The notes: a model not told the origin generated them from the letters alone. Positions 1 to 35,944 are shown, counted from the stretch's first letter. The stretch is DNA of 37,256 bases from a virus (IMGVR_UViG_3300008018_000002), one strand, 5' to 3'. Numbers and translations are program-made.

Positions 1-112
1 ACCGTCGATTTGACGATTACGGGCGCACAGGTCGCCCGACGATCATCACGGGAGAGATGGAAAGGGCGATCCGATCCATCCCAAAAGCCCGCAAAAATAA
101 TTGTGCCGAACG
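1..112. repeat. terminal direct repeat, left copy
   Basis: 1-112 is base-for-base identical to 37145-37256 and the match runs to both window edges. Unit genome length is 37144 bp. Either a circular-assembly overlap or true terminal redundancy. Confidence 0.95.
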
Positions 113-437
113 ATCAAGAGGAGGCACGCCGCAAATGAGTAACGAATCCAAGAAAGGCGCTGATCGGCGTTGCCTCCCTCGCCTTGTTCGGCTTGAGCGG
201 GGCGACGGGCAAGCCGTGAATCCTGCCTACTCATCGGACGGCTACGAAGAGTTTTGCCAGCGCGAAAAAGACAAGGGTCTTCGACGCGACCTGTGGGACA
301 AACTCCCAGAATTGTGGGAGCGAGAGCTTGAGTTCCGAGCCAAGTTTGAGGCGGCACTGGCAAAATTTTCTGAGCCGAACGATCAAGAGGAGGCATCCGC
401 CGACGAGAACCTCAACCGAAGCCAGAAAACTTTATGA
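3..437 (+). CDS. HTH-domain protein, 3' part of an ORF that starts at 37051 and crosses the terminal repeat (176 aa on the circular map)
   Basis: The frame is continuous with 37051..37256 through the repeat. The stop TGA overlaps the next ATG (ATGA at 434). An in-frame internal ATG at 135 is preceded by AAGAGGAGG. Confidence 0.6.
   Translation, partial: RRFDDYGRTGRPTIITGEMERAIRSIPKARKNNCAERSRGGTPQMSNESKKGADRRCLPRLVRLERGDGQAVNPAYSSDGYEEFCQREKDKGLRRDLWDKLPELWERELEFRAKFEAALAKFSEPNDQEEASADENLNRSQKTL
105..126 (+). repeat. 22-bp perfect direct repeat, copy 1 (GCCGAACGATCAAGAGGAGGCA)
   Basis: Identical 22-mer at 374-395. Translated here as AERSRGG. Confidence 0.9.
374..395 (+). repeat. 22-bp perfect direct repeat, copy 2
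   Basis: Identical to 105-126 but read in a different codon phase of the same ORF (EPNDQEEA). Confidence 0.9.
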
Positions 438-1021
438 TACCAGACACCTTTGAAGAAACGCTAGAAGGCGGATTACCATCCGCGCCTTGTTCCCCGTCTT
501 TTCGGCGAGTGTGGGCGATGCCGAACTCAGACACGTTCAGCGTGCCGCCGATGGGCGACATGGTGAAGCGATACCTGCGGACGGCAAAAGTCTCGGTCGA
601 TCCCTTCGCCCGAAACAAACGATGGGCGACCCACACGAACGATCTAAACCCCGAGACAGAAGCGGAACACCACATGGACGCTGAGGAGTTCCTATGGATG
701 CTCCGGGATCAGGGCGTGCGGTGTGATCTCGCTATCCTTGACCCGCCATACTCCCCGCGCCAAATCTCCGAATGCTACAAGGCGGCTGGCCTGTCGGTGG
801 GTATGAAGGAGACGCAAAACGCTGCGCTCTACTCCCGCGTGAAACACGCCTTGTCGCAAATCCTGACCCCGGAAGCAATCGTCCTCAGCTTCGGCTGGAA
901 CAGCTGTGGGATGGGCAAGAAATATGGTATGGAGATCATCGAAATGATGAACGTGTGCCACGGCGGGGCGCACAACGACACGATCTGCATCGCCGAAAAA
1001 CAAGAACCACGACTCCTATGA
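434..1021 (+). CDS. DNA methyltransferase, N6-adenine/N4-cytosine type (DPPY motif)
   Basis: ILDPPYSP catalytic motif. Upstream VDPFARN resembles the AdoMet-binding motif. ATGA coupling to the upstream ORF. Confidence 0.75.
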   Translation: MIPDTFEETLEGGLPSAPCSPSFRRVWAMPNSDTFSVPPMGDMVKRYLRTAKVSVDPFARNKRWATHTNDLNPETEAEHHMDAEEFLWMLRDQGVRCDLAILDPPYSPRQISECYKAAGLSVGMKETQNAALYSRVKHALSQILTPEAIVLSFGWNSCGMGKKYGMEIIEMMNVCHGGAHNDTICIAEKQEPRLL

Positions 1022-1218
1022 AATACAAATACGAAATCAACCCGTGCCGCCGTGATGGCGACAGCTTCGAGAAATGCGACGAAACAGCGACGGACATCGC
1101 CACATGGAGCGTCTATCGACGCGGAGACGATGACCTCGCGGAATGGTTGAGCGACCACGAAACGAAAGTCGCCGCCGAAACCGAGATGGAGCGTCTTCAG
1201 TCTTCGGGGAACGCTTAA
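1018..1218 (+). CDS. hypothetical protein (66 aa)
   Basis: The ATG overlaps the methyltransferase stop (ATGA). The acidic sequence looks protein-like. Confidence 0.5.
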   Translation: MKYKYEINPCRRDGDSFEKCDETATDIATWSVYRRGDDDLAEWLSDHETKVAAETEMERLQSSGNA

Positions 1219-1235
1219 ATCCTCCTACCGCTGCC

Positions 1236-2171
1236 ATGAACTCCACTCCGATAGCTCCCGCGACTCCTAACCAACTTCCCGCTGGTCGGCATATCATCCC
1301 GATCAGCGGGAAAGATTCGTTGGCGACGGCCATCATCCAGACCGCACACCAGCCCGATCTGGAATACGAATACATCTACAACGACACCCGGATGGAGCTG
1401 CCGGAAACCTACGCTTGGATAGACAATGTGGAAACGGTAATGGGGATCACAATCACCCGCGCAGGAAAGAGTCTGGCCGCGATCATCGCGGAACAAAAAA
1501 TACTGCCGTCGCCGATGACGCGATACTGCACCAAATACGCGAAAATCTTCCCGATGCGCGACTACATCGGAAAGGATGCGGCAACGATCTACATCGGAAT
1601 CCGTGCCGACGAAGATCGCCCAGGCGCTCAGGAAACCAAAAACCTCACAGTCCGCTATCCACTCAAGGAAATGGGTGTGAATCTCGCCCTCGTGTATCGC
1701 CTCGTGGAAGGCAAAGACCTAATGCCTCCAGCCTTCTTCTGGCAGCGCATCTATGACGGCGTAGTCGCCGCCCTTGGCTCTGAATCATGGATCATCACCG
1801 AACTACCAAAATGGATCTTCGACCGAACCTTCGCATGGCGCTCACGCCCCAACTGCTACATGTGCTTCTACCAACGCCGCTACGAATGGTGCGGACTGCT
1901 GGAACATCACCCGGATCTCTTCGCCGAGGCGGAAGCCATCGAATCGCGGCACGGCTACTCGGAAAACACCAAGAAACACGCCTTCCTGTGGATCGGGCAG
2001 GACATGCCACTGTCCTACATCCGCGACAACTTCGAGCGGATCGTGCAAACGCGGATCGATGCGGTCGCGAAGCTCCTGCGGAAGCGACTGCAAATGGATC
2101 TCTTCACCGATGCACTCTTCGACGAACTCGAAGCCGCTCAAACGTCCTGCGGCCTATACTGCGGGAAATGA
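1236..2171 (+). CDS. PP-loop ATPase, PAPS-reductase-like (IbrA/DndC-type)
   Basis: N-terminal IPISGKDSLATAI resembles the SGGKDS PP-loop. The C-terminal SCGLYCGK resembles the ECGLH tail of PAPS/APS reductases. This is the first ATG after the upstream stop. Confidence 0.7.
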   Translation: MNSTPIAPATPNQLPAGRHIIPISGKDSLATAIIQTAHQPDLEYEYIYNDTRMELPETYAWIDNVETVMGITITRAGKSLAAIIAEQKILPSPMTRYCTKYAKIFPMRDYIGKDAATIYIGIRADEDRPGAQETKNLTVRYPLKEMGVNLALVYRLVEGKDLMPPAFFWQRIYDGVVAALGSESWIITELPKWIFDRTFAWRSRPNCYMCFYQRRYEWCGLLEHHPDLFAEAEAIESRHGYSENTKKHAFLWIGQDMPLSYIRDNFERIVQTRIDAVAKLLRKRLQMDLFTDALFDELEAAQTSCGLYCGK

Positions 2172-2221
2172 AATTCTCTCCCCTGAACGCCACAAGCTAG
2201 GCATCCCAGCCCTCAGAAAGC

Positions 2222-2250
2222 TTACACGATGCCCTCAAAATCCATATAAT
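2222..2250 (+). promoter_or_regulatory. sigma70-type promoter candidate TTACAC-17 nt-TATAAT
   Basis: TTACAC at 2222-2227 and TATAAT at 2245-2250, in the 147-nt gap upstream of ATG 2319. Confidence 0.55.
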
Positions 2251-2318
2251 CAAACAACCCCGATCAGTCCAGCGGCTGGGATTGCCTACGCTGACTTGTT
2301 CGATCTCTTCAATTCATT

Positions 2319-2912
2319 ATGCCGTATAAAGATAAAGACGCTGCAAAACGCAGAAAGCGCGAATGGTATCTGAAAAACCGGGAACGCCTACTTGCCGAAT
2401 CCGCCGAGAAATACAAAGAGAATGCCGACGAAATCAAAGCCAAGGTGAACGCTCACTACCATGAGAACAGGGATGAAATCCGAAAGCGGCGCGACGAACT
2501 GAATGCCGCCAACCCAGAGCAGAAGAAGCGATGGGATGCGCGATACAGGGAGGCAAATCGTGACAAGATCAATGAATGGGTGAAGGCGAATCGTGAAATC
2601 GTAAATGCGTGGAAAAAACGCCACTACAAGAGGCACGGGGAAAAGGTGAAAGCCTACAACCGATCCAAAAACAACGGATGGGAGAAAGCTCCCCAACGGA
2701 TGCAACTATGGGAAATCCACGATGACGCAATGCTCTTCAACTCCGAACTATCAGACAAGGATCTCGCTAAGGAATTAGGCCGTAGTGTGATGGCCGTAAG
2801 CACTCGCCGCTCTATACTTAAGAGTGAATACGGCGACGACGAAATTTCTTCATCGAACGTCAAGGTGAAGTGCGGCAACGCCTCGCCTCCAACCAAATCA
2901 GACGGCGAGTAG
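2319..2912 (+). CDS. basic repeat protein with C-terminal HTH-like segment
   Basis: Degenerate K/R/E-rich repeats of the form (W/Y)xxN(R/K)(D/E)x(I/L), e.g. WYLKNRERL, YHENRDEI, YREANRDKI, VKANREIV. The C-terminal LSDKDLAKELGRSVMAVSTRRSILK is HTH-like. Confidence 0.6.
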   Translation: MPYKDKDAAKRRKREWYLKNRERLLAESAEKYKENADEIKAKVNAHYHENRDEIRKRRDELNAANPEQKKRWDARYREANRDKINEWVKANREIVNAWKKRHYKRHGEKVKAYNRSKNNGWEKAPQRMQLWEIHDDAMLFNSELSDKDLAKELGRSVMAVSTRRSILKSEYGDDEISSSNVKVKCGNASPPTKSDGE

Positions 2913-2920
2913 CCGTCACT

Positions 2921-2938
2921 TCGACCGCCTTGTTAGGC
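2921..2938 (+). repeat. recurrent intergenic 18-mer TCGACCGCCTTGTTAGGC
   Basis: 17/18 identical to 35945-35962. Both copies end 32-34 nt before the next ATG. Related copies lie at 3845-3865 and 181-194. Confidence 0.8.
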
Positions 2939-2970
2939 TTCTTCCGAACTAATCTCAAACCTCGAATACC

Positions 2971-3546
2971 ATGAAACTACTGCCTGAAAACCCTACGCAA
3001 TTCGACTACCTGCACGCCATCCGCGCCCTAGCTGCGAGGGGAGATATGAGCGCCGTCCCGAAGCTTAAAGAGATATTCAATCTAGCGGACGCTGGGATGT
3101 TCGCCAAAAAGGAACCGCCAGCGCATATTCGCCTCTGCGGATGGCGCGGGATGGCGGGCGGTGACGGTTGTATCCTTCCGCTCGGACACGATGGCGGGCA
3201 TGGATTCAGGGACGGCTCCGGTTATCTGCCTAACGTCATAGGAGATGTGGCGGCGGCTTGCACGCCCAAAAAAGATCAGACGGCTTCCTCGCCGTCACAT
3301 CCTCCGGCTTGTTCGCTTTTCTTCGATTGCGAGATAACGCCACCGCCCGATAACGTGCGGGTTGTGTTCTTCATCATGCCTTATCGTGTGTGGTGGTTCG
3401 GGAAAATGATGTATGGGGAAATCTGTATGCCTACCGCACCGCCCAAGGCAAAAGCCATCTACTGGATTCCCCTTCCGTTGGTTCCAGAGTCACCGGATAC
3501 TGACCGCTGGGAAATCACTGAGTCGATGAAAGTCCGCAAAGCATGA
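2971..3546 (+). CDS. hypothetical protein (191 aa)
   Basis: Long ORF in the co-directional gene array. No motif recognised. Its 3' end overlaps the convergent ORF 3459..3728 by 88 nt. Confidence 0.5.
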   Translation: MKLLPENPTQFDYLHAIRALAARGDMSAVPKLKEIFNLADAGMFAKKEPPAHIRLCGWRGMAGGDGCILPLGHDGGHGFRDGSGYLPNVIGDVAAACTPKKDQTASSPSHPPACSLFFDCEITPPPDNVRVVFFIMPYRVWWFGKMMYGEICMPTAPPKAKAIYWIPLPLVPESPDTDRWEITESMKVRKA

Positions 3547-3728
3547 AACTGATTCGAAATTCTCGACCAATCTTCCTGCCTCTTAGAATAGCTCTTATGA
3601 CTGGAAAGCTCCTTCAAATGATTCCTCAGATAACCAGAATGTTCATCAATGTAGTTGCTCTGGTAGTTGTCGCATTCTCTCAAGAGCGCCTTAACTGCCG
3701 CAAAATCTTCGTATTCAAGGGGTTCCAT
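3459..3728 (-). CDS. hypothetical protein (89 aa), - strand, low-GC island
   Basis: ATG start at 3728, preceded by a conserved upstream element shared with the other - strand gene. The translation looks helical and protein-like. Confidence 0.45.
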   Translation of the reverse strand: MEPLEYEDFAAVKALLRECDNYQSNYIDEHSGYLRNHLKELSSHKSYSKRQEDWSRISNQFHALRTFIDSVISQRSVSGDSGTNGRGIQ

Positions 3729-3735
3729 AATTTAT

Positions 3736-3760
3736 TAGCGAACGTCAGAGTCTATCCACC
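3736..3760 (-). promoter_or_regulatory. conserved upstream element, copy 1 (+ strand TAGCGAACGTCAGAGTCTATCCACC)
   Basis: 21 of 24 aligned positions match 4395-4418. Lies 7 nt upstream of the - strand ATG at 3728. Contains the DnaA-box-like CTATCCACC. Confidence 0.6.
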
Positions 3761-3815
3761 CGCTCCCACTCAGCGCACTCCGCAGCACGAAAAAGGGGGT
3801 GACAAGTGAGCGGGT

Positions 3816-4382
3816 TCATTGGACGGCGGGGAGCGGGTTGGATACGACGCCTTGTTCGCTTCTTCTTTTTTCTTGGTAAGCCATGCCAGTCTTGGAGAGC
3901 CACCAACCTTTCGGGTTTGGAAATCCATCTCGCTGGGCGCCCCACTTCGGAGCGCCAGCCATCTTTGGAGTCATGCGCTCTAACCCGAAAAGAGCACTTT
4001 CAACATCTACGCGATTCCTCCCAGACTTCTCTTCAAGCTCCTCAAGGGTATATCGCTCAGGGTAATAGCAATACATTATATCCATCAGGGAATGCTGTAA
4101 TTCAGAAAACCTATCGTCGTGATTGGGATTCACTATTAGATCGGATAAACGTTGCCTTCTCGCTACACGATACGAGCACACCACAGCGATCAGCAATAAA
4201 TTCGCAATCGTGGAAACCCAGAGTGTGTATGCTAGGATTTTGTTGGCTGTGGATAACCCTGACCACAGTAGGAACAATGGAAGCACCAGAGTCCCGAATC
4301 CTAGAATCACTTTGGCAAATGTCTTTTGTAATGCCTCAACTTGGCTGGATAGCCATTCCTCTAATGATTCGGATAAAAGCAT
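3816..4382 (-). CDS. membrane protein, 2-3 predicted TM helices plus soluble C-terminal domain
   Basis: Hydrophobic stretches VILGFGTLVLPLFLLWSGL and ILAYTLWVSTIANLLLIAVVC. ATG at 4382 (the ORF track starts at TTG 4388). The opposite-strand ORF 3806..4438 looks non-coding. Confidence 0.55.
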   Translation of the reverse strand: MLLSESLEEWLSSQVEALQKTFAKVILGFGTLVLPLFLLWSGLSTANKILAYTLWVSTIANLLLIAVVCSYRVARRQRLSDLIVNPNHDDRFSELQHSLMDIMYCYYPERYTLEELEEKSGRNRVDVESALFGLERMTPKMAGAPKWGAQRDGFPNPKGWWLSKTGMAYQEKRRSEQGVVSNPLPAVQ

Positions 4383-4394
4383 CTTCAAATTTTC

Positions 4395-4418
4395 TAGCGA
4401 ACGTAGAGCCTATTCACG
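4395..4418 (-). promoter_or_regulatory. conserved upstream element, copy 2 (+ strand TAGCGAACGTAGAGCCTATTCACG)
   Basis: Matches 3736-3760. Lies 12 nt upstream of the - strand ATG at 4382. Confidence 0.6.
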
Positions 4419-4469
4419 GCGGGGAGGACTCCGCCTAAATCAGAGAGCTGGCCGCCGTTGAATACGGCG

Positions 4470-4478
4470 TCTACGTTC
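4470..4478 (+). promoter_or_regulatory. partial third copy TCTACGTTC, inverted relative to 4399-4407
   Basis: Reverse complement of GAACGTAGA at 4399-4407. Lies 32 nt upstream of ATG 4511, in the same orientation to its gene as the two long copies. Confidence 0.4.
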
Positions 4479-4510
4479 TCCACTCTTAATTCAACCCCAA
4501 GACTACGAAT

Positions 4511-4744
4511 ATGGAAACTGAAACACCTGAAACTGATGCTAAACACCACGAGATTGCACAACTTGATTGTAGCGATCTATACCGATACAGACACATGCAG
4601 CTACACGCCCGCAAGCTGGAACGCGATCTAAATAAATGCCAAGCAGCTCTCGTGAAGCTCGATCAAATCTACCGCGCCGGCCTATGCAATGAGCCTGTGC
4701 GCCCCGAGTGGATCGCAAAATGGATTCCCATGGAGAACAGCTAA
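4511..4744 (+). CDS. hypothetical protein (77 aa)
   Basis: ORF with an ATG start following the divergent intergenic region. Confidence 0.45.
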   Translation: METETPETDAKHHEIAQLDCSDLYRYRHMQLHARKLERDLNKCQAALVKLDQIYRAGLCNEPVRPEWIAKWIPMENS

Positions 4745-4769
4745 TTATACAGAACCAGAACCAACAACC

Positions 4770-5189
4770 ATGAGTCAAACAAAGAACTTACCCGAAATCC
4801 TCCAGAAAGTCCCGTTCGCAACGCTGATGACCGAGATCAACCGCCGAACCAGCCCATCGAAAGGAATGCACCTGATAAACGACACAGTAGCCGACACGTT
4901 CCGGCTCGACCCATACGAGCTACGTTTCGCAAGGCCGCACACACGATCAGTAGCGCCAGCCAGGTATGCAGCGATGATACTCATGAGGCGGCTAATGGAT
5001 GCGCGATGGGACGAAATCGCGACCTACTATGACGTAACCAAAGGCACAGCCGCTAAGTCGCTGGTCTATTTTGAGACCCATCGCAACCGGAGCGAGGAAT
5101 ACAGGGCGAGGGCTGAATGGGCTGAGGCACAACTACTCCAGTTAAATAATCGCAACTGCTTAAGGCAAATTGCACAGGAGCAAGCATAG
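4770..5189 (+). CDS. DnaA domain IV-like helix-turn-helix protein
   Basis: RSVAPARYAAMILMRRLMDARWDEIATYYDVTKGTAAKSLVYFE parallels the DnaA C-terminal DNA-binding domain pattern RSVAxPRQxAMxLxxxLTxxSLxxIGxxFGxRDHTTVxHA. Confidence 0.55.
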   Translation: MSQTKNLPEILQKVPFATLMTEINRRTSPSKGMHLINDTVADTFRLDPYELRFARPHTRSVAPARYAAMILMRRLMDARWDEIATYYDVTKGTAAKSLVYFETHRNRSEEYRARAEWAEAQLLQLNNRNCLRQIAQEQA

Positions 5190-5202
5190 GATAACAATTG
5201 TA

Positions 5203-5499
5203 ATGAAAGGTAAAATCATGTCAAGAAAGAACGATGTAGCCCTTATGGGGCAAGGGATGGGTAAAACGACGAGATCCTTTAAACAAGTGATGAAACGCAA
5301 GAATGATAGGCTTAGGCAAGTTGAGGACAGGTTAAACAAGGCATGCCTCAAGCTTGATGAGGCTACTGACGCGCTAAATCGAATCTTGAAGACCGAAGAT
5401 GATTGCAATCAATGCGATCCTTGGTCGGCGCTGGAATCCATTAGCGCAATCGCTCACAATGCACTAGCAGGCTTGATATTGGACGGGAAAGAGGGGTAG
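5203..5499 (+). CDS. hypothetical protein (98 aa; alternative start 5218)
   Basis: Low-GC ORF with a coiled-coil-like sequence. AAAGG lies 7 nt before ATG 5218, so the start is ambiguous. Confidence 0.4.
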   Translation: MKGKIMSRKNDVALMGQGMGKTTRSFKQVMKRKNDRLRQVEDRLNKACLKLDEATDALNRILKTEDDCNQCDPWSALESISAIAHNALAGLILDGKEG

Positions 5500-5661
5500 G
5501 ATCAGTGAGAACGATGAGAAAGGAACGAAATGCAGCGCGTAACAGCATGATAATCAACGACTTAGAAAAAGGTAACCTCTTAAACGACCGTTTAGAAGAG
5601 CGGAGTGCCGACTCCGGGGAAAACCTATGATTTTTGAAATCAAACAAAGTAACAAACCAAA

Positions 5662-6279
5662 ATGAACGAAACCAAACAGAAAATTGAGATGATGCGAACG
5701 GCGGATTTGATCCCCTATGCCCGCAACAGCAGGACTCACAGCGAAATGCAAGTGGCGCAGATCGCCGGAAGTATCCGAGAGTTTGGATGGACGAATCCTG
5801 TCCTGATCGACGCAGAGAACGGCATCATTGCCGGACATGGCCGGGTGATGGCAGCGCAGCTACTCGGCGCGGACAAGGTGCCGTGCATCCGGATCGAACA
5901 TCTGACTGAGACGCAGAAGCGGGCTTACATCATCGCGGACAACAAGCTGGCCCTCAACTCGGGATGGGATGAGGAGATGCTAGGACTGGAGCTGGCGGAC
6001 TTACGGGAAATGGACTTTGATCTTGGCTTGCTCGGATTCAGCGAGGAAGAGCTAGGCTCATTCGACATCGAAGAATCCGATATGCCGGATCTCTCCGACG
6101 CTGACAAGCAGCCCTTCCAGCAGATGACATTTACCGTGCATGATGAGCAGGCCGAGGATGTGGAGTCGGCAATCCGCAAGGCAAAGCAGATGGGACACGG
6201 AGAATCAGCCGTAAACGAAAACAGCAACGGCAACGCTCTCGCATTCATCTGCCAATCCTTCAACCGGGTGAATCCATGA
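5662..6279 (+). CDS. ParB-like N-terminal (nuclease/sulfiredoxin-like) domain protein
   Basis: LIPYARNSRTHSEMQVAQIAGSIREFGWTNPVLID...IIAGHGRVMAAQLLG is the typical ParB N-terminal domain signature. No partition HTH or ParA partner was seen. Confidence 0.8.
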   Translation: MNETKQKIEMMRTADLIPYARNSRTHSEMQVAQIAGSIREFGWTNPVLIDAENGIIAGHGRVMAAQLLGADKVPCIRIEHLTETQKRAYIIADNKLALNSGWDEEMLGLELADLREMDFDLGLLGFSEEELGSFDIEESDMPDLSDADKQPFQQMTFTVHDEQAEDVESAIRKAKQMGHGESAVNENSNGNALAFICQSFNRVNP

Positions 6280-7043
6280 TAAACACAAAATCAAATCCCG
6301 ATTTGCCGGATTGCCGGGTTGCTCCGATCAAGCTGGAAGATGCTCGCAAGATCACGGTTGCGAAGCACTACATGGGAACATGGCCGCAAGGCGCGAAGGT
6401 CGCCTTCGGTCTATTCAAGAAATCCAAATGCGTCGGTGTAATGGTGGCTGGCTATGCCCCAACAACAGAGAGGAAAGTTGCAAAGTGGTGCCGAAAAATC
6501 GAGAGAAGGCAATATATCGAACTGCAGCGGACATGGATCAGCGACGAGATGGGGCACAACACGGAATCATGGATGATGGCTCGCGTTATGCGAATCTTCA
6601 AGCAATCCGGGATGTGGCTCGTTATGACCCACAGCGGCGGGTGCAAGGATGATGTGGGATTCATCTTTCAGGCTTCCGGCTGGCTCTATTTCGGATGCGA
6701 TCCGTGCAATGACTTTTACGAAACCGAGCGGGGAGAATACAAGAATCTAGTAAGCGCAATGAGATTCGGTCGCGTCCCCAAGGAGATCTTAAAGCAGGGA
6801 CAGCAAGCTATCGGCGAACATCTTTTCGGAGCGGGCAAGATAGTTCATGCAAGACGACATCTCTACATCTACCCGATCAACCGAGGGCTTCGTCAGCGCC
6901 TCAAAAAACTCACCTTGCCATTTCCAAAGAATCCCGCATTATTTCGCCGTGATCAAGCATGGTCAATTAACGGAGGTGTGGACACGGGGTCTGAACTCTC
7001 ACCGGTTTCTGGGTCACTCCCGGACACCTCCGCCAAGCCATGA
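6276..7043 (+). CDS. Mom-like acyltransferase-fold protein, paralogue 1 (putative DNA base modification)
   Basis: PIKLEDARKITVAKHYMG...FGLF...CVGVM, ELQRTW...NTESWMMARVMRIF, IFQASGWLYFG and HLYIYPI...LPFPK match the family pattern I recall for phage Mu Mom relatives. ATGA coupling on both sides. Confidence 0.55.
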   Translation: MINTKSNPDLPDCRVAPIKLEDARKITVAKHYMGTWPQGAKVAFGLFKKSKCVGVMVAGYAPTTERKVAKWCRKIERRQYIELQRTWISDEMGHNTESWMMARVMRIFKQSGMWLVMTHSGGCKDDVGFIFQASGWLYFGCDPCNDFYETERGEYKNLVSAMRFGRVPKEILKQGQQAIGEHLFGAGKIVHARRHLYIYPINRGLRQRLKKLTLPFPKNPALFRRDQAWSINGGVDTGSELSPVSGSLPDTSAKP

Positions 7044-7771
7044 GCGCTAAGGACATAATCGTCCGTCCGATCAAGGCTGCGGATGCAAACAGGATCGTCA
7101 AATCCTGCCATTACTCTGGCAAGGTCGTTCCGAACTCGCAGCTCCATTTCGGAGTTTTCCTCGAAGGCAAATGCGGAGGCGCGATGCAGTTCGGGCCATC
7201 AATGCGCAAAGACCTGATCCGTCCGCTTGTAGCTGGCACCAAATGGAACGGATTCATCGAGTTGAATCGCATGGCGTTTGCTGACTGGTTGCCGCGCAAC
7301 TCCGAGAGCCGCGCCATTGCTGTTGCTATGCGGCTAATCCGCAAAACGTATCCTCACATCGATTGGATCGTCAGCTTTGCGGACGGAACGCAATGCGGAG
7401 ACGGGACAATCTACAGGGCTAGCGGATTCATTCTAACGGGGATCAAAAAGAATACGGAGCTAGTCGTGAACCCAAGGACTGGCGAGACAATGGCAACCAT
7501 GGCAGCATACCACAAAGGATTTGCATCGGAGATTTCAACATGGGAGAGGCTTTCCGGCCACATGTTCCGATACCTCTACTTCCTCAATCCGGGAGCACGA
7601 TCCCGATTGACAGTTCCGGTAATCCCGTTTAGTGAAATCCAACGCCGGGGAGCAGGTATGTATCTCGGCAAACCAAAACGCGCCGGAAGTGACACTTCGG
7701 ACACGCCAGCTTTCCAAGCTGGAGAGGGCGGCTCACTACCGACCCCGGCGCTCCATTCTCCCGAGATATGA
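7040..7771 (+). CDS. Mom-like acyltransferase-fold protein, paralogue 2
   Basis: PIKAADANRIVKSCHYSG...FGVF...CGGAM, ELNRMAF...NSESRAIAVAMRLI, VSFADG...GTIYRASGFILTG and FRYLYFL...IPFSE are colinear with paralogue 1. ATGA coupling to terS. Confidence 0.55.
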   Translation: MSAKDIIVRPIKAADANRIVKSCHYSGKVVPNSQLHFGVFLEGKCGGAMQFGPSMRKDLIRPLVAGTKWNGFIELNRMAFADWLPRNSESRAIAVAMRLIRKTYPHIDWIVSFADGTQCGDGTIYRASGFILTGIKKNTELVVNPRTGETMATMAAYHKGFASEISTWERLSGHMFRYLYFLNPGARSRLTVPVIPFSEIQRRGAGMYLGKPKRAGSDTSDTPAFQAGEGGSLPTPALHSPEI

Positions 7772-8421
7772 AACCGCCCGTAATATCCCAAGACCAGCTT
7801 GATAAGATTCATCAAGCCAATGCCGCGAACCTCATCAAGAAGGTAAAGAGCGGTAAGACGCTGACGAGCGAGGAACGCCGCATACTGGAAGGCATGGCCG
7901 GGCATGATACGGAGTCGGTCACAACTTCCCGACTCGCTGAAATCTTCGGCGTAAACCGTAAGAGCATCGCGCAATGGCGCAAGGAGGGTAAGAATGTGCC
8001 GGACAAGGTAGGCGGCAAGGAACCGCTGGCCGAGTGGCGGCGATGGTTTGAAGATCACCCGGATGCAGGACATTTCGATGGGAAGCCGAGCAAGAGCCGT
8101 GAGGAGCTTCTTGCCGTCAAGGTAGCGGTGGAGATCGACCTGCTTGAAATCAGGCGAGACAAGGAACGCGGGAAGCTGATTTCCCGTGATGAAGTCAATG
8201 AAAGGGACGTTAGTATTGCGATGGCGCTAAAGGCAATGCTGAGACGATATGAGCGCGAAATACCGACATTATGCCTTGGACTACCACTTACCCAGTCAAT
8301 GCCTATCGTGAAGACCAAGGCGCGAGAGCTACAAGACAGGCTATCAGACATGACTGGCGAGTTCTGGGGGAATAACCCTGAATCCAATGAGCGAACCGTT
8401 TTGCCGCACAATCAAATCTGA
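7768..8421 (+). CDS. terS: terminase small subunit (Nu1-like HTH)
   Basis: LAEIFGVNRKSIAQWRKEGKNVP is an HTH, followed by a coiled-coil-like segment. Lies directly upstream of, and overlapping, terL. Confidence 0.7.
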   Translation: MKPPVISQDQLDKIHQANAANLIKKVKSGKTLTSEERRILEGMAGHDTESVTTSRLAEIFGVNRKSIAQWRKEGKNVPDKVGGKEPLAEWRRWFEDHPDAGHFDGKPSKSREELLAVKVAVEIDLLEIRRDKERGKLISRDEVNERDVSIAMALKAMLRRYEREIPTLCLGLPLTQSMPIVKTKARELQDRLSDMTGEFWGNNPESNERTVLPHNQI

Positions 8422-10135
8422 CTCCGACCTGCACCCGGCAGACTGGTGCGCGGAGTATGTCCACGTTGAGAACAGCGAGCGCGGGAGTAAGTTTGACCCG
8501 TCACAAACCCGATGGTGGAGGAAACCGATGGGATGTTATGCGGACTACGAGACGCGAAACATGGTCTGCATCATGCCGACCGGAGCGGGCAAGTCCACGT
8601 TCTTTGAGGCGATCAACTGCTGGATCGTTTCTGAGGCTCCCGGCTCCGTGCTGTATGCGTCCATCACCGATCCGAACGCGGAGCTTTGGGGAGAGACACG
8701 ATTCCTAAAGGCCGCGAAGAAATGCACGCCGCTGGATCACCTATGGCCAAAGAACCAGCGCAATGCGGTTCGGAAGGATGCGATCATATGGGCGCACATG
8801 TTCATGGTTCTAGGCGGTGCGAACATGTCCAACTTCCAGGAAGTCTCGATCACCTACGGGCAGGGGGACGAGGCATGGGCATGGAAGCCGGGCATGGTTC
8901 GGGAGTGGAATGCCCGATCCCACAACCGCGAAAATCGCAAATTCACGCTCGCATCGCAAGCCGGCATGATCGCCACCGAGGACGGCACGGGTGAGACTTC
9001 AGAGCTTCATGCCGAGCATGACAAATGCCGGAAATGGGATTTCGCTTGGAAGTGCGAATGTGGGCATGTCCAACCGTTCCGCTTTGAGCAGTTGAAATAT
9101 CCAGACAAAGGCACCGATCAGGAAAGGGCGGATGCGGTTGTGCGAGTCTGCGAAGGATGCGGGAAGGAACACGCCGACACTCACGAAAACAGAAGGGCGC
9201 TGCATGACAGCTACGAGGAAAACGACGGGTATCTCTGTGTGAACCCGGACGGGCAGCGCGGATACGAGGGCTTCCACCTCGACGCGGGCGGCATCTGGTG
9301 GATTCCGTGGGCGGAGGACGTATTGCAAAAGATCGCGGCGGACAAAGCGGCGGCGATGGGAGACTTTACCCAGCTTAGGCAATGGACGCAGAAGAGGCGG
9401 GCGGTCGGCTGGTCTGACAACCTGCAAGCCTCGGAAGTCACCCTAAAACCATCCGGCTACACACGCGCCGATTTCAGCGAGGGGCAAAAGATTGATGGCG
9501 AGGCAGTCCGGTTCTGCACGATTGACGCGGGCGGAGATCATTTCTGGCTAAGAATCCGCGCCTGGTGCCAGGGTGGAGAATCCAAGGGTTTGTTTTTCGG
9601 ATACATCAACAGCGAGGCGGAGTGTGATGAAATCCGGGAGCGTTACGGGGTGTTACCAAAGCATACTTTTCTGGATGTTGGATTCGACCAAGAGCGCATG
9701 GCAGGGCTTATCGTGCAATACGGCTGGCAGGGCATGAAAGGGGATGGCAATAAAAAATCCGGGTGGGATTGGCCGATCAAGAGTGACCCGAACAAGAAAG
9801 AAATCCGGCTCTACTCTAAACGCTGGTATGCACTCAGCAAGGAAAAGAAGCAAGCTACCTGCTGGCACATCGCCACCGAGCCGATTCAATACATCCTACA
9901 GCGGCTCATGTCCGGAGAGGGTGCTGAATGGCTTGTCGAGGACGATGCGCCGCCATCATACGCCAAGCACCTAAACAACGAGCGGTTGGAAACAGCCAAG
10001 GATTCGCGAGGGCGGGAGGTCAAGAAGTGGACGCGCCGGGGAGCGCAGCACGGCAGGGATACGGAGGTATATCAAGTCGCCGCCGCCCTAATGTTCCGAA
10101 TTTTCACACCACCAAAAACAACCGAAGATGAGTAA
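8387..10135 (+). CDS. terL: terminase large subunit, GpA (lambda) type
   Basis: Walker A IMPTGAGKST. Cys4 cluster CECGH...CEGCGKEH, as in GpA-family terminases. 582 aa, followed by lambda-like head gene order. Confidence 0.9.
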   Translation: MSEPFCRTIKSDSDLHPADWCAEYVHVENSERGSKFDPSQTRWWRKPMGCYADYETRNMVCIMPTGAGKSTFFEAINCWIVSEAPGSVLYASITDPNAELWGETRFLKAAKKCTPLDHLWPKNQRNAVRKDAIIWAHMFMVLGGANMSNFQEVSITYGQGDEAWAWKPGMVREWNARSHNRENRKFTLASQAGMIATEDGTGETSELHAEHDKCRKWDFAWKCECGHVQPFRFEQLKYPDKGTDQERADAVVRVCEGCGKEHADTHENRRALHDSYEENDGYLCVNPDGQRGYEGFHLDAGGIWWIPWAEDVLQKIAADKAAAMGDFTQLRQWTQKRRAVGWSDNLQASEVTLKPSGYTRADFSEGQKIDGEAVRFCTIDAGGDHFWLRIRAWCQGGESKGLFFGYINSEAECDEIRERYGVLPKHTFLDVGFDQERMAGLIVQYGWQGMKGDGNKKSGWDWPIKSDPNKKEIRLYSKRWYALSKEKKQATCWHIATEPIQYILQRLMSGEGAEWLVEDDAPPSYAKHLNNERLETAKDSRGREVKKWTRRGAQHGRDTEVYQVAAALMFRIFTPPKTTEDE

Positions 10136-10445
10136 GAGACGCGGGGCATACCGGAGCAGGAAGCGTGAGACGAAAAAGCGTGACGACGAGCGACGGCGTG
10201 AAAGCGGAATCTACTACGAGGACGGCGTGAGAAAATGGGTTAGCATCAAGAATAGGAAGGAAATCACGATACAGCCAAACCGCAGGCTTTACATCAAGAC
10301 CGAGGACATCGACCCGGAAACCGAGGCCGAGCTTGGCAACGCAATTGAGGGCAAGTCAAAAAGATTCGACCGATACGCGGCGGCACGGATGATCGTAGCG
10401 CAGGCGATGGCGAAGGGGATAATCATTGAGGGGGATGTTTGCTAA
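10128..10445 (+). CDS. hypothetical protein (105 aa), basic N-terminus
   Basis: Overlaps the terL stop by 8 nt. No motif recognised. Confidence 0.5.
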   Translation: MSKRRGAYRSRKRETKKRDDERRRESGIYYEDGVRKWVSIKNRKEITIQPNRRLYIKTEDIDPETEAELGNAIEGKSKRFDRYAAARMIVAQAMAKGIIIEGDVC

Positions 10446-10456
10446 ACCCTGCCCCG

Positions 10457-10491
10457 TTTGACTTTCGCCACCTTCGGGAAAATCCTTTCCC
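10457..10491 (+). promoter_or_regulatory. late promoter-like element, copy 1 (TTTGACTTTCGCC...AATCCT...ATG)
   Basis: TTGACT at 10458-10463, a 17-nt spacer, AATCCT at 10481-10486, then 5 nt and ATG 10492. No Shine-Dalgarno. Confidence 0.6.
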
Positions 10492-10770
10492 ATGGCATCG
10501 GCATTCAGGCAAGCACAGGGCATTTTCCGGGCGATCCGTGGCAACCCGGAGCTAATCGAGGAGCAGCGGGCGGCGTATGTCGCTGCCGAACGAAGCCTTA
10601 CGTCCACAACTGGCGGCATCCAGGTAGAATCCGCCACGGTCAACGGGCAATCATTTTCCGGCAAGGCGACATCAACGCCAGCCGAGCGTTTCGAGATCCT
10701 GCAAATCCTCATGGGCATGATCGACCGTGACTCTGCCGGAAACCGCACAACCATTGCCGGCTTTTTATGA
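10492..10770 (+). CDS. gpW-like head-tail joining protein (by position and loose similarity)
   Basis: 92 aa between terL and portal, as in lambda. The segment IQVESATVNGQSFSGKATSTPAERFEIL parallels the gpW core. Confidence 0.45.
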   Translation: MASAFRQAQGIFRAIRGNPELIEEQRAAYVAAERSLTSTTGGIQVESATVNGQSFSGKATSTPAERFEILQILMGMIDRDSAGNRTTIAGFL

Positions 10771-12218
10771 TACTTGACCAATACGGAAACGCCACATCCT
10801 CCTATTCCCGCCGACCATCACGCCACGCTAACCTTGGTGGGGGAGATAGGCCGAGCGAGTCAAGGAATCTGCGCGACCTGCACAAGGTTGTAACGAAGTA
10901 TGACCGTCAGACGCTTGTTTCAGCGAGCCGCACGCTTTACCTTAACAGCCCGTTGATGGTCGGCGCATCCAACCAGATCGGGATTTACTCGGTCGGCAAC
11001 GCATGGCTTCCAACCTACAAGGGCGACGATAAGGCGTTCGGAGACAAGGCGAAATACTGGCTCAAGGACGAGTGGTATTCGATCTGCAATATCATCGGAG
11101 ACGTTGCGGATTTCACATCCGACATGTTCGTTGATTCGGTTTCGCTAGACCGTGACGGAGAGGTTTTCGAGTATTCCACCAAGTCTCCGAACGGGTATCC
11201 ACAGATTCAACAAATCCCATCGCATCGCATTGAAAGCGGAGGACTTGCGGACGGCATCTTGCGTGATGGGAGGTATAAGGGTTATGATCTATACGACGGA
11301 ATCGTCTATTTCCCAAACACCTCAATCCCGGTCGCTTACTCCCTTTGCGACGTTGATAGACGGCACAAGCAGTTCATCGAAAAGAAGTTCATCCTCCACA
11401 TTTTCGACCGCTACTGGCCGGAGCAACGCCGGGGTCTGCCCCTTTTCTGGCATTCACTGAACAACCTGCGCGACATCCTCCAGAGCGAGGAATGGGAGCG
11501 CATGAACCTGCTCTCCATGTCGTCTCTCAACTATACGATTGAGAACGAATCCGGCGGCCCCGACATGGACGAGCCAGGATACGAGCCAGCTACCGAATGC
11601 GGTAAGCTCGCCGTGGAATATCTCCAAGGCGGGCGCATCACCTACGCGACGGCAGGGGCTGGCGAGAAGATCACGCAGCACCAGAACTTCCGCCCCGGCA
11701 ACCCTTGGCATGAGTTTTATGACATGCAGGCGCGGCAATGTTTGATCGGAGCAAGCCTCCCTGCATCGCTTTGGAAGCCATCTGGACAAGGCACCGCCGA
11801 ACGCGCCGACATTGGCAAGGCTTGCCGCTTTGTCGAAGATCGCCAATCCATGCTTGAGAAGATCGCGAAGTGGAGAGTCACCAAGGCTATCGCATGGGCA
11901 ATGGAAGCCGGGCGCATTCCGAAGTCGGATGAATGGTGGAAGTGGGAATTTACTAAGCCGCCAAAACTCACGATTGACGATGGCCGCAGCCTAAAAGAGA
12001 AGATGGAGCTTTACGATAAAGGGCTAGTCAACGCCACCGCCGTTATGGGTGAGCTTTCCACCGATTACGAGGAAACCATCCGCGAGCGGGCGCGTGAGGA
12101 GGCTATGCGCCTTGTTGCCGTCCGTGAGATCGGCGCGGAATACGGCGTGGAGATCGACCCCCGCAGCGTGAGACTTTTAACTTCAAACGAGCAACCAATC
12201 CAACCCACAGAAGAATGA
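10767..12218 (+). CDS. portal protein (lambda-family by context)
   Basis: 483 aa, between the gpW-like gene and the protease, ATGA-coupled on both sides. Confidence 0.8.
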   Translation: MILDQYGNATSSYSRRPSRHANLGGGDRPSESRNLRDLHKVVTKYDRQTLVSASRTLYLNSPLMVGASNQIGIYSVGNAWLPTYKGDDKAFGDKAKYWLKDEWYSICNIIGDVADFTSDMFVDSVSLDRDGEVFEYSTKSPNGYPQIQQIPSHRIESGGLADGILRDGRYKGYDLYDGIVYFPNTSIPVAYSLCDVDRRHKQFIEKKFILHIFDRYWPEQRRGLPLFWHSLNNLRDILQSEEWERMNLLSMSSLNYTIENESGGPDMDEPGYEPATECGKLAVEYLQGGRITYATAGAGEKITQHQNFRPGNPWHEFYDMQARQCLIGASLPASLWKPSGQGTAERADIGKACRFVEDRQSMLEKIAKWRVTKAIAWAMEAGRIPKSDEWWKWEFTKPPKLTIDDGRSLKEKMELYDKGLVNATAVMGELSTDYEETIRERAREEAMRLVAVREIGAEYGVEIDPRSVRLLTSNEQPIQPTEE

Positions 12219-13285: not shown

Positions 13286-14455
13286 ATGGCTAATACCCTT
13301 ACAGACCTAGTATCAGACTCCTTCGCCGCGCTTGACGTGGTTTCTCGCGAACTCGTCGGATTTGTTCCGTCGGTTACTCGCGACGCAAGCGTTGATCGCG
13401 TTGCGCTCAACCAAACCGTTCGCGTTCCAAAGTCTCGCGCAAATTCGGCGGGGCGTGACATTACGCCTGCTATGGCGTTCCCGGCTGCTAACGACCAAAC
13501 TGTTGACAATTCCGGGCTTACTATCACAAAGGTTCGCGCATTCCCTTTCTCTTGGACTGGTGAAGAGCGTTACACTCTCGACCGTGGCCCCGGAGCATTG
13601 ACCGTTTCACAAGGATGGATCGCACAAGCTCTTCGCGCTGCCGTCAATGAGGTGGAAACCGACATCGCAACCGCAGCGTATCTCGGTGCATCCCGCGCAT
13701 TCGGCATAGCTGGGACAACCCCATTCGCTTCCGATCTTGGTGCATCCGCCCAGATGAAGAAAATCCTCGACGACAACGGCGCACCCGGAACCGGACGATC
13801 GCTGGTGATCAACACCACCGCTGGTGCATCGCTTCGCACGCTTCTGAATAACCCGCTGAACGCAAATACATCACTCAACGGGGATTCCACCCGCCAAGGA
13901 ATGATCATGGATGTCAACGGATTCAAATTCCGCGAATCCGCGCAAGTTCCAACAGTTGCAGCTGGAGCAATGGCATCCGCCACCAGCACAAACGCCGCGT
14001 TTACTGTTGGGCAGACGGTTATTCCGCTTGCTACCGCAGGAACCGGAGTGGTTGCCGCTGGTGATATCATCACCTTCGCAAACGACACCAACAAGTATGT
14101 CGTCGCATCGGTTAGCTTTGCGGGTGCGAACCCAGCATCGGGCGACACCATCACGCTTGCCGCCCCGGGACTGCGTGTGGCTCAGTCCGCCGCTACCCGT
14201 GCAATCACTGTGGTTTCCACCAGCGCCCGCAGTGCGGGATTCAGCGAAAACGCCATCGTGCTAGCCGCTCGGCTCCCCGAGGTTGACCCTGACGGCGATC
14301 TTGCCGCTATGCGCGAAACGATCACTGACCCTGTTTCAGGTCTTTCTTTCGAGATCGCGGCGTATCCGGGATACCGCATGATGACCTATGAAGTATCGCT
14401 CGCTTGGGGCGTTAAGGTCATCAAGCCCGAACACCTCGCTGTTCTCCTCGGCTAA
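13286..14455 (+). CDS. major capsid protein
   Basis: 389 aa directly after the protease-scaffold gene, with an A/C-rich unstructured leader, followed by a strong terminator. Confidence 0.8.
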   Translation: MANTLTDLVSDSFAALDVVSRELVGFVPSVTRDASVDRVALNQTVRVPKSRANSAGRDITPAMAFPAANDQTVDNSGLTITKVRAFPFSWTGEERYTLDRGPGALTVSQGWIAQALRAAVNEVETDIATAAYLGASRAFGIAGTTPFASDLGASAQMKKILDDNGAPGTGRSLVINTTAGASLRTLLNNPLNANTSLNGDSTRQGMIMDVNGFKFRESAQVPTVAAGAMASATSTNAAFTVGQTVIPLATAGTGVVAAGDIITFANDTNKYVVASVSFAGANPASGDTITLAAPGLRVAQSAATRAITVVSTSARSAGFSENAIVLAARLPEVDPDGDLAAMRETITDPVSGLSFEIAAYPGYRMMTYEVSLAWGVKVIKPEHLAVLLG

Positions 14456-24665: not shown

Positions 24666-25121
24666 ATGAACTGGTTCCAGGAAAAACTCTTCTACTCCGC
24701 AACAGTGATGCTCTCGTCCGGCTGCCTCTGGCTCGGCACCATACTGAGCGTGGGCGATGTCCGGTGGTTATACGCAACCGGAGCTGCCTCGTTGATGACC
24801 AGCGGCTTCGTCGGCCTCGCTCTCCGAAAAGACGGCGACTCCATCCGCATCCTCATCTCCCGGACGGGCATCGGTTTCGTTGGCGGGGTGTTCGGCACAA
24901 AACTGGTGCTCCATTGGTTCTCAGCCCTCGACCATATCCGCGTCCAGTCCGAAACCGACCTCATCCTCCTCTGCGGGATCGCGACGCTGGTCTCCATCGT
25001 CTCCCACACCCTGGGCTACTCCATCATCAAATCCGCCGACGACTCCGCCGCAAACATCGCCAGCCGCCTCCTCGACCGCCTCCTCATGTTCCTCGGAATC
25101 TCCCGCCAGAACAAGCCATGA
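24666..25121 (+). CDS. membrane protein, about 4 TM helices (holin candidate by position)
   Basis: Four hydrophobic segments. First gene of a cassette that ends with a peptidase. Confidence 0.5.
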   Translation: MNWFQEKLFYSATVMLSSGCLWLGTILSVGDVRWLYATGAASLMTSGFVGLALRKDGDSIRILISRTGIGFVGGVFGTKLVLHWFSALDHIRVQSETDLILLCGIATLVSIVSHTLGYSIIKSADDSAANIASRLLDRLLMFLGISRQNKP

Positions 25122-26239: not shown

Positions 26240-26410
26240 TCACCCGCTGACCTTCCCCCTCAGCCTCTCCAGTATATCCGGCTGTTGCCACTTAGGAGGC
26301 TTGCGGCGACCACTGAGCCAGTCGTAGGCCGTCGCTTTTTTGCAGCCGACCGCCTCGGAGATTTGCGCGGCGCTGTAACCGCTGAGTGATTTCGCGAATG
26401 TTTTTTTCAT
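26240..26410 (-). CDS. small HTH regulator (Cro/CI- or YdaS-like), 56 aa
   Basis: YSAAQISEAVGCKKATAYDWLSGRRKPP is an HTH. Divergent from the early operon. ATG at 26410 (the track start 26431 is TTG). Confidence 0.6.
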   Translation of the reverse strand: MKKTFAKSLSGYSAAQISEAVGCKKATAYDWLSGRRKPPKWQQPDILERLRGKVSG

Positions 26411-26446
26411 CGGCAAATCCTTGCGCCGCAAAGCGTTTTAGTCAAA
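26411..26446 (-). promoter_or_regulatory. promoter-like element on - strand (TTTGACT 36 nt before ATG 26410)
   Basis: The - strand reads TTTGACTAAAACGCTTTGCGGCGCAAGGATTTGCCG-ATG, the same distance as the late copies. AAGGAT could instead be a Shine-Dalgarno. Confidence 0.4.
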
Positions 26447-32489: not shown

Positions 32490-32621
32490 ACCCGTCGCCT
32501 AGCGCGACCAGTCCGTGACAACCGGAATGAGAACAAAACAAATAATGCGCCCTTGTGCGTTCGTGTGCCGTCGTTATGCGTCGGGTTGTCCACACGGACT
32601 GCAAGGGCGATCCTCTTCCTA

Positions 32622-33377: not shown

Positions 33378-33475
33378 AAACAAACACCGACACCCCTAAA
33401 AATCCGCAGGAACCTTCCTCGGAATCGCCATCTACGCATTATAACCCTCACCAATACTCAAACAACAACCAATGA
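33374..33475 (+). CDS. small low-complexity ORF (33 aa)
   Basis: ATGA overlaps at both ends bridge the initiator and loader genes. Coding status uncertain. Confidence 0.3.
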   Translation: MKTNTDTPKNPQEPSSESPSTHYNPHQYSNNNQ

Positions 33476-35492: not shown

Positions 35493-35526
35493 AAAGAAAT
35501 AGGCATTGCCAAAGAAAGAGCTTGCC

Positions 35527-35925: not shown

Positions 35926-35944
35926 AAACTTTCCCGCCGTTGCC

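Follow-up and report, generated by a model that had tools for sequence, protein, structure and literature searches.

The genome of an uncultured tailed phage, IMGVR_UViG_3300008018_000002, very probably carries an integrase-less integron cassette array (CALIN) at positions 2182–4738 (array A, minus strand, ~2.6 kb), in which the cassettes c0, c1, c2, c3 and c4 follow one another in that order. All positions are counted from the first letter of the 37,256-nt stretch that was analysed, hereafter the window, and we put the probability of this interpretation at roughly 85%, based on attC recombination sites called with a model of our own, on the folding of these sites and on the breakpoints observed in natural variants. 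Sequence comparison places the attC sites in the repeat family of Verrucomicrobiales chromosomal integrons (Luteolibacter, Akkermansiaceae and Prosthecobacter), and from this attC family we infer that the host belongs to the Verrucomicrobiales. The window closes into a circle of 37,144 bp (bases 1–112 are repeated at 37145–37256), which is a complete tailed-phage genome with genes for a GpA-type large terminase, portal, ClpP-type protease, endolysin, RecT, an O-like initiator, a DnaC-like loader and a DnaB-like helicase. An initial annotation of the region had proposed a low-GC accessory island of moron type at 3459–5661; this interval starts inside c2 and overruns the array into 4739–5661, and its limits were therefore replaced by those of the array.

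An attC site begins with an inverse core (R'') and ends with a core (R') that holds the crossover point G|TT; between them lie the paired L''/L' arms and a loop of variable sequence, and the total length is ~57–141 nt. In the window, each minus-strand unit ends in an imperfect palindrome of the form xxxxAAC-AAG.CG ... GAC-GTTxxxx; the AAC and GTT are present in 8/8 sites (86–124 nt), and the textbook GCCTAAC or GTTAGGC is carried by two sites. The pattern of the site at 3228–3317 was used as the seed to search for bacterial arrays, and a covariance model (R1) was built from 100 attC sites taken from bacterial genomes only. Searched with R1, the window gave six sites (E from 6.5e-19 to 2.7e-5), each of them on the minus strand; when read on the plus strand, the same loci score 10–15 bits. 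These sites, listed together with attC b and a degenerate sequence, are:

4396–4481, minus strand: attC a; R'' GGAGAAC, R' GTTCGCT (4402 to 4396); R1 29.0 bits, E 1.2e-5 (plus strand 9.7 bits); fold z −3.8.
3737–3860, minus strand: attC b, a long-loop site of 124 nt; R'' AGCGAAC, R' GTTCGCT; extends into the 3' end of the 188-aa gene.
3228–3317, minus strand: attC c; R'' AGCGAAC, R' the canonical GTTAGGC; R1 78.5 bits, E 6.5e-19.
2852–2938, minus strand: attC d; R'' GCCTAAC, R' GTTCGAT; R1 44.5 bits, E 8.5e-10; fold z −3.7; junction of variant L015 at 2863.
2182–2304, minus strand: attC e, 123 nt, the last of array A; R1 29.5 bits, E ~2e-5; R-box pairing, a 17-bp stem and two bulges.
105–192, minus strand: attC of a second cluster; R'' GCCGAAC, R' GTTCGGC; R1 46.9 bits, E 1.9e-10 (plus strand 14.8 bits).
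35877–35962, minus strand: attC of the second cluster; R'' GCCTAAC, R' GTTCGGT; R1 43.7 bits, E 1.3e-9; overlaps the 3' end of a 139-aa open reading frame (ORF) at 35506–35925.
374–495, minus strand: degenerate attC-like sequence; R1 12.3 bits, five non-standard pairs, fold no better than shuffles; its 3' half is identical to that of 105–192.

A CALIN is recognised by at least two close attC sites in the same orientation, and here four R1 sites and attC b lie within 2182–4481, to which the sites at 35877–35962 and 105–192 are added; the second cluster (35877–495) is looser and extends across the circular junction. The folds comprise paired R-boxes, an unpaired spacer, a long stem and single-base bulges on one arm. 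For attC b the DNA fold reaches −29 kcal/mol (z −3.4, 0/200 shuffles as good) and includes R-box pairing, internal loops, a long stem and bulges. Among 17 distinct phage and bacterial sites, 97.2% of the stem cells were paired and 15/15 pairs had changed on both sides, with compensatory changes in 69 cells compared with 19 in shuffles; none of 500 shuffles reached the observed values, and slid controls were 37–61% paired. This alignment was fitted to the model and is hence structure-leaning, and we judged the effect size and the raw alignments to secure the conclusion. A search of window positions 1–6000 against Rfam, which holds no attC family, returned no match. The attC loop itself (3279–3296 and 2901–2917 on the minus strand, as well as the bacterial consensus) contains a small GC hairpin followed by a TGATTAAATT-like sequence that places stops in two frames, and several cassette ORFs end inside this loop and share an attC-encoded C-terminus (...ANKAEM.TPRK..D).

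The same attC pattern was found in at least 120 metagenome contigs, some with 3–5 same-strand copies spaced 300–1500 nt apart, and in at least 120 stretches of species-representative genomes, where about 115 of the 120 listed are Verrucomicrobiota. The complete chromosome of Luteolibacter sp. AS25 has up to 14 same-strand copies per 8 kb at ~1.86–1.98 Mb. Once aligned, the 100 bacterial sites share 88% mean identity, and the bacterial cassettes have a median length of 515 nt. Integrases adjoin these arrays in divergent orientation: the proteins from Luteolibacter sp. AS25 and a Verrucomicrobiales metagenome-assembled genome (MAG) score 388 and 395 bits with NCBIfam TIGR02249 “integron integrase” (cut-off 265), the adjoining integrases are 40–49% identical to IntI1 (a lead that the TIGR02249 scores confirmed), and at least 17 further loci have IntI1-like matches. 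In the phage, a tblastn search of the window with IntI1 gave no match at E ≤ 0.01; a scan of the other large, unannotated ORFs with a tyrosine-recombinase profile was not part of this search.

Cut at the R' sites, the array resolves into the following cassettes, with a sixth (c6) that obeys the same boundary rule:

4402–4737, minus strand: c0, probable first cassette, 336 nt, with a reversed 77-aa ORF (4511–4744, plus strand).
3743–4401, minus strand: c1, 659 nt, with a 188-aa gene (3816–4382, minus strand) and its own attC b; start TTCGCT, own R'' AGCGAAC.
3234–3742, minus strand: c2, 509 nt, with an 89-aa gene (3459–3728, minus strand) and its own attC c; start TTCGCT, own R'' AGCGAAC.
2858–3233, minus strand: c3, 376 nt; start TTAGGC, which complements its own R'' GCCTAAC and not the upstream R''.
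2188–2857, minus strand: c4, 670 nt, with a reversed 197-aa ORF (2319–2912, plus strand); start TTCGAT, own R'' ATCGAAC.
c6: start TTCGGC, own R'' GCCGAAC, a perfect complement.

A cassette that derives from a circle starts with six bases, TTxxxx, that complement the R'' of its own attC and not that of the attC upstream. The rule holds perfectly for c0, c1, c2, c3, c4 and c6, as well as for five cassettes of the variant genomes (GTTCATG/CATGAAC, GTTCTCG/CGAGAAC, GTTCGCC/GGCGAAC twice, and GTTCGCT/AGCGAAC), and to 6/7 for the segment that spans the junction. In bacterial arrays, the four variable bases matched perfectly for the cassette's own attC in 101/179 cases, compared with 25/179 for the upstream attC and 17/179 for shuffled pairs. 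Complementarity that is specific to the cassette implies circular intermediates closed at G|TT. At the outer end of the array, the boundary GTTCTCC (4738 to 4732) is the exact complement of the attC a R'' (GGAGAAC) and the sole such 7-mer in the window; since a match within 260 nt is expected by chance with p ~2%, the sequence is suggestive only of c0 being the first cassette.

The two minus-strand genes and the plus-strand ORFs at 4511–4744 (77 aa) and 5203–5499 (98 aa) are all present, as listed in the initial annotation. As cassettes, the 188-aa and 89-aa genes are of the canonical forward type, and they point against the other phage genes because they belong to a minus-strand array; their reverse orientation follows from the orientation of the attC array and does not speak for an independent transcription unit. 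Hydropathy agrees with transmembrane helices in the 188-aa protein, in the form of two hydrophobic segments at approximately residues 21–44 and 49–74, and the secondary structure of its C-terminal part consists of three helices and a beta-hairpin (low-confidence AlphaFold2 model, mean pLDDT 54, not good enough for searching by fold), which suggests a two-pass membrane protein with a membrane-tethered winged-helix-like domain. The protein has seven homologues (49–60% identity), homologues turn up in unrelated settings, one of them a chromosomal integron of Luteolibacter, and the minus-strand frame is better conserved than the antisense frame; a related N-terminal membrane domain is encoded by an integron cassette of Luteolibacter sp. 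AS25 with the same kind of leader. One could guess, with low confidence, that the 188-aa protein has a role in modulating the infected cell or in excluding other phages. Of the other cassette products, the 89-aa protein is helical, and the 197-aa protein has three homologues (67–97% identity) in short contigs. In c3 no convincing minus-strand ORF was found. The plus-strand ORF 2971–3546 starts in this cassette, runs through attC c and overlaps the 89-aa gene in a convergent arrangement, the 88-nt overlap (3459–3546) noted earlier being real; AT skew at 3001–3500 is atypical for a plus-strand gene, and in L015 the same tail is fused to another N-terminus. At least part of this ORF is probably an artefact of cassette juxtaposition.

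Variants were retrieved by looking up the 188-aa, 89-aa and 139-aa proteins (the last encoded within 4739–5661) in public assemblies, with contigs given here as L numbers. The phage with its array was assembled, from several samples and by several assemblers, in at least 53 index blocks of the collection in which the longest contig with the 139-aa gene measures 20–50 kb, with none longer. The variant genomes are 37–38 kb in size and 99.98–100% identical to the window over 11–12 kb outside the block differences, and they differ by whole cassettes. In L013, exactly the 188-aa cassette is missing, and the deletion joins attC a, the site that precedes this cassette in the window, to the 89-aa cassette, while L017 (a 513-nt contig from six samples) corresponds to window positions 3232–3744, i.e., the 89-aa cassette. 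An additional 675-nt cassette is present at 3740–3744 in L360, L361, L366, L364 and L363, and an additional 224-nt cassette at 108–112, the R' of attC 105–192, in L010, L360 and L366 (start GTTCTCG, own R'' CGAGAAC). L014 and L015 have the 89-aa cassette beside other cassettes (171, 111 and 166 aa), of which the 171-aa cassette has its insertion point at the R' of attC e in L014 and the 166-aa cassette takes the place of c3 in L015. All mapped variant junctions lie at R' (108–112, 2185, 2863, 3232, 3740–3750 and 4388–4402), with the resolution limited to the shared GTT(C) bases, and sequence identity between variants ends at GTT. The R' of attC b is the breakpoint of L013, L014, L015, L017 and L360 and the position of a scaffold gap in L010. 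The 171-aa and 166-aa cassettes carry host-consensus attC sites (88–108 bits), whereas most resident phage sites score 29–47 bits, a pattern that fits recent acquisition onto an older array.

Several other differences among the assemblies were examined and set aside. An apparent 155-nt “insertion” in L010 is in fact a gap of 100 N (L010:9835–9934) plus a duplicated 55-mer, exactly at the attC b R', and the truncated 188-aa gene of L363 and L365 reflects only another start picked by the gene caller, the DNA being identical. Capture of cassettes by IS91/ISCR rolling-circle transposition was also considered, as an IS91-family ORF (Y2_Tnp 7.9e-38, Zn_Tnp_IS91 3.5e-24) is present where L001–L003 and L362 diverge at window position 3854. 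This Y2 element is restricted to some variants, and the array junction lies downstream of the transposase at a GTTC target; in IS91 biology such a GTTC junction is an ordinary insertion site and not the side that mobilises adjacent DNA, and the candidate was rejected. The element (L001:10530–11921, L014:1553–1605 and L362:1–1392) abuts the GCGAAC| of R'' in two attC sites, one after the 188-aa cassette and the other after the 111-aa cassette, with an identical end sequence in both (CCCAAAGATAGC...); the copy in the phage takes away the final 11 codons of the 188-aa gene and is frequent, seven similar places being reported. The extra 675-nt cassette (L360:8296–8970) holds two paired, reversed genes for proteins of 93 and 63 aa, of which the 63-aa one matches HTH_3 (E 2.4e-7), with a palindromic operator-like sequence (ATTATTTGCG...CGCAAATAAT) upstream; it looks like a toxin-antitoxin cassette, in variant genomes only. 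The terminal overlap of the window (1–112 and 37145–37256) ends exactly at the R' of attC 105–192.

A number of observations weigh against the array as we describe it. R1 does not recognise the site at 3737–3860 (attC b), and the site at 374–495 is degenerate in both its fold and its R1 score. The second bulged base would be a C on the strand that recombines, where a G is usual, and in the R-boxes the four variable positions often deviate from the RYYY/RRRY consensus. Two of six window cassettes have an ORF that is co-directional with attC, compared with 85/97 in bacterial arrays; co-directional ORFs are typical of integrons, but they do not define them. The short contigs L014 and L015 could derive from a host array and not from phage genomes. 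Finally, the 1.7-kb methyltransferase/PAPS-reductase block and a 1.37-kb segment at the junction lie between attC sites and are not cassette-like. For the former (496–2181), an assignment as a cassette was rejected: the R'/R'' rule fails (GTTCAGG vs GGGGAAC) and codon use is core-like (0.79), and the block is therefore read as backbone between the two attC clusters.

The best of the competing explanations, although an unlikely one, is a generic moron or accessory island as favoured by the initial annotation, in which low-GC genes would have been gained through homologous or illegitimate recombination and would have promoters of their own, serving in superinfection-exclusion, abortive-infection or toxin roles. 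Such an island would account for atypical GC content and codon use and for backward genes, one of which encodes a membrane protein. The GC values counted by hand proved exact (40.0% at 3541–3660, 40.0% at 4081–4140, 60.0% at 13681–13740 and 66.7% at 25021–25080), and 3459–5661 is the lowest 2.2-kb stretch (48.3% vs 54.2% in the rest, with 0.3% of sliding windows as low), but the dip is modest at ~6 points, and other 1-kb stretches are equally GC-poor, e.g., 32531–33530 at 47.0%. Codon atypicality was likewise borne out in part: the 188-aa and 89-aa genes have the lowest GC at third codon positions (0.50–0.53) and the lowest codon similarity to core genes (0.65–0.67 compared with 0.73–0.79), although the O-like gene is equal to them (0.657). 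Differences in presence and absence among close genomes also suit a moron, and the comparison with relatives that had been proposed as a check supports the left part of the island as horizontally acquired accessory cargo, with cassettes varying among genomes that are 99.98–100% identical; it does not support the proposed boundaries or mechanism, and 4739–5661 is identical across all close variants.

With respect to expression, a near-consensus sigma-70-like promoter at 5197–5224 on the minus strand (TTGACA, 16 nt, TACAAT; 11/12) lies between the 139-aa and 98-aa genes and faces the array; it speaks for a moron and, reading from 5224 towards 5197, could drive the minus-strand cassettes. However, promoter-like and terminator-like matches occur at chance frequency (4 promoter-like matches vs 3.4 in shuffles), and the small hairpin with a T-rich tail sits within the attC loop. 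The toxin-antitoxin-like cassette of the variant genomes would also be at home in a moron. For the cassette proteins of the window, the proposed superinfection-exclusion, abortive-infection or toxin roles found no support: for none of the 188-, 89-, 77-, 197- and 98-aa proteins did PADLOC, PHROGs, Pfam or NCBIfam return a significant match, the 89-aa protein having a single weak, non-significant PADLOC match, and a PDB sequence search with the 188-aa profile and the 89-aa protein returned chance-level matches only. What generic recombination does not predict are boundaries formed by attC sites of a bacterial integron family, breakpoints at G|TT and a match of R' and R'' within each cassette.

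Less probable still is that the sites are short repeats serving as boundaries for homologous recombination driven by the RecT and exonuclease of the phage, with no integrase involved, comparable to the shuffling of T4-type promoter-stem-loops. The phage does encode RecT and a RecE-like exonuclease, neighbouring sites are nearly identical over 17–30 nt, and L011 has a patchy exchange within the 3' arm of attC b. Yet every mapped junction is at the R' end and not spread over the repeat, the R'/R'' complementarity implies circles closed at G|TT, the stems vary while staying paired and thus offer less usable homology, and in bacteria the same sites adjoin IntI genes. An assembly artefact, in which reads from a host chromosomal integron were misjoined to phage contigs at the repeats, is hardly credible. 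In its favour, the breaks of contigs and of one scaffold coincide exactly with attC junctions, and the variant contigs are in many cases short. Yet one and the same arrangement, flanked by phage genes on either side, recurs in many samples and with MEGAHIT (k141), SPAdes and Joint Genome Institute assemblies (37–38 kb contigs, 100% identity), attC sites that are shorter than k = 141 and mutually non-identical cannot collapse, and assemblies are expected to break at cassette junctions because the population is polymorphic there.

If the array is a CALIN, its turnover could be explained by the host's integron integrase acting in trans on phage DNA during infection. Folded attC strands would be recombined at G|TT, with the consequence that cassettes are excised, inserted and replaced in the phage genome; cassettes might in this way be traded between the host pool and the phage attC sites, and resident ones deleted or reordered. 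The first cassette would probably have entered at a secondary GTT site, and GTTCTCC at 4738 and GTTCAGG at 2188 fit such junctions. Expression would differ with orientation, in that the minus-strand cassettes would need a promoter upstream of 4402 and the reversed ones would ride on the plus-strand transcription of the phage. The fact that four reversed cassettes run with phage transcription may reflect selection for expressible cassettes; given the small number of cassettes, this is no more than a lead. We regard as a long shot the wider idea that the phage attC sites form an interface with host IntI, through which the phage would trade cassettes with the bank of the host and the whole 37-kb genome could enter or leave the host integron as a giant cassette, amounting to lysogeny without an integrase of its own.

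The array also contains the only clustered minus-strand genes, as had been claimed, since elsewhere there are just one isolated helix-turn-helix (HTH) gene (26240–26431, minus strand) and one 45-aa call. This lone 63-aa HTH gene (HTH_31, E 7.7e-5) lies just after the endolysin, where the early region starts; its product looks like a repressor, and a 45%-identical homologue is found in the integron region of a Luteolibacter MAG (L216:1695–1856). Together with the IS91 insertion in many copies and the excess of ORFs along phage transcription, the repressor-like gene hints at time spent inside cells and at cassette selection.

Integrons are usually viewed as gene-capture devices of bacteria, with the superintegron of Vibrio cholerae as the textbook sedentary chromosomal integron, and host cassette reservoirs are rich in anti-phage defence genes. 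The sedentary chromosomal integrons of Verrucomicrobiales share with the phage array the attC family, a similar cassette size, short leaders and the R'/R'' rule, and reversed toxin-antitoxin-like cassettes are common to them and to the phage variants. In contrast to these integrons, the phage array is without intI (tblastn) and without an identified cassette promoter (Pc) or attI, neither of which is recognisable by sequence here, and its cassettes are few and mostly reversed; the resident attC sites of the phage are also more diverged (29–47 bits vs 78–110 bits for host-type sites). Lambdoid morons have their own promoter and terminator and no site-specific recombination site. They and the T4-type stem-loop cassettes resemble the array in being small, variable accessory genes between conserved ones and bounded by hairpins, whereas the units described here are bounded by integron attC sites and would move as integron cassettes.

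CALINs were defined by Cury et al. 2016 (PMC4889954), who noted integrons in Verrucomicrobia, and were described in phages by Qi et al. 2023 (PMC9892861), some with mixed ORF directions, several ORFs between sites and methyltransferases among the cassettes; of the six phage attC sites that they tested, five were recombined with attI1 by IntI1. Like those CALINs, the present array has several attC sites and cassettes in a tailed phage, no intI, mixed ORFs and methyltransferases among attC-flanked genes. It differs in having an attC family of the host lineage and a ~2.6-kb array with a second cluster, and in being known from sequence alone, whereas the sites of Qi et al. were assayed; furthermore, sister genomes document cassette gain, loss and replacement here, which is not reported in that study. 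A possible route for entry of the first cassette in the absence of attI or attC is outlined by Loot et al. (bioRxiv 10.1101/2022.09.11.507474), where insertion of cassettes outside att sites (attG, or an isolated single attC) is described as shown in E. coli; their targets are bacterial genomes and the evidence experimental, while here the target would be a phage and the route is deduced.

In the limited literature searched, we found no report of cassette turnover in a natural phage population, nor of this attC family in phages. Phage CALINs themselves have been known since 2023, and what is new here are the natural variants with cassette turnover, the assignment to a host lineage and the bias towards reversed ORFs. 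Earlier reports of attC clusters in phages described them as static, in a few genomes; the one uncultured population studied here has cassettes coming and going at the crossover point, and offers a natural system for asking if phages take from the cassette reservoir of their hosts and also give back to it. Membership in an attC family could be used to assign hosts to uncultured phages, in this case to the Verrucomicrobiales. Caution is also called for in annotation, as ORFs that cross an attC, such as 2971–3546, may be artefacts of juxtaposition.

The array is flanked on its two sides by:

496–2181, plus strand: phage backbone block between the two attC clusters, with a DNA methyltransferase (518–1021) and a PAPS-reductase-like gene (1236–2171), from PHROG and Pfam matches.
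4739–5661, plus strand: low-GC small genes outside the array, encoding proteins of 139 aa (weakly DnaA_C-like) and 98 aa and a 38-aa call; no attC match.

On the former side, the attC e R' (GTTCAGG) forms the junction with the phage backbone just past the PAPS-reductase stop codon. On the latter, the description of the 139-aa protein as “DnaA domain IV-like” was not sustained, as Bac_DnaA_C matches with E 5e-6 at 26.9 bits, below the Pfam cut-off of 31.5 bits, and TIGR00362 with E 0.0011 over 66 residues; its sequence points at most to a possible HTH of the DnaA_C type. This protein has no homologue but itself among 5.8 billion proteins. The 162-nt AT-rich gap at 5500–5661 is there as described, with 41.4% GC, and public gene calls place a 38-aa ORF within it.

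Comparison with more distant phages showed that 4739–5661 is missing from 98 viral contigs, and that the genes of the proposed island occur in none of the related phages reached via ParB (80 loci) or the large terminase TerL (18 loci) in these 98 contigs; megablast of window positions 1–12000 against 50,697 phage records gave no match. L345 is the sole one of the 98 contigs with an attC, a single site of the same family (L345:3431–3517, minus strand, E 9e-7); the L345 genes run on the other strand, and the site is ~2.2 kb upstream of the terminase. The large terminase of L345 is 66% identical. Downstream of the small low-GC genes, the segment 5662–7771 encodes a ParB-N-domain protein and two Mom-family proteins. 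The ParB is 77–84% identical in many viral contigs, and in contigs sharing this module the terminase is only ~30% identical and the upstream genes are unrelated. The DNA-modification module appears to be mobile in its own right among phages. Lastly, the segment across the circular junction encodes, at 36578–37054 on the plus strand, a 158-aa protein with an HTH, for which no Pfam match was found and whose motif presumably resembles the DNA-binding modules of homing endonucleases.

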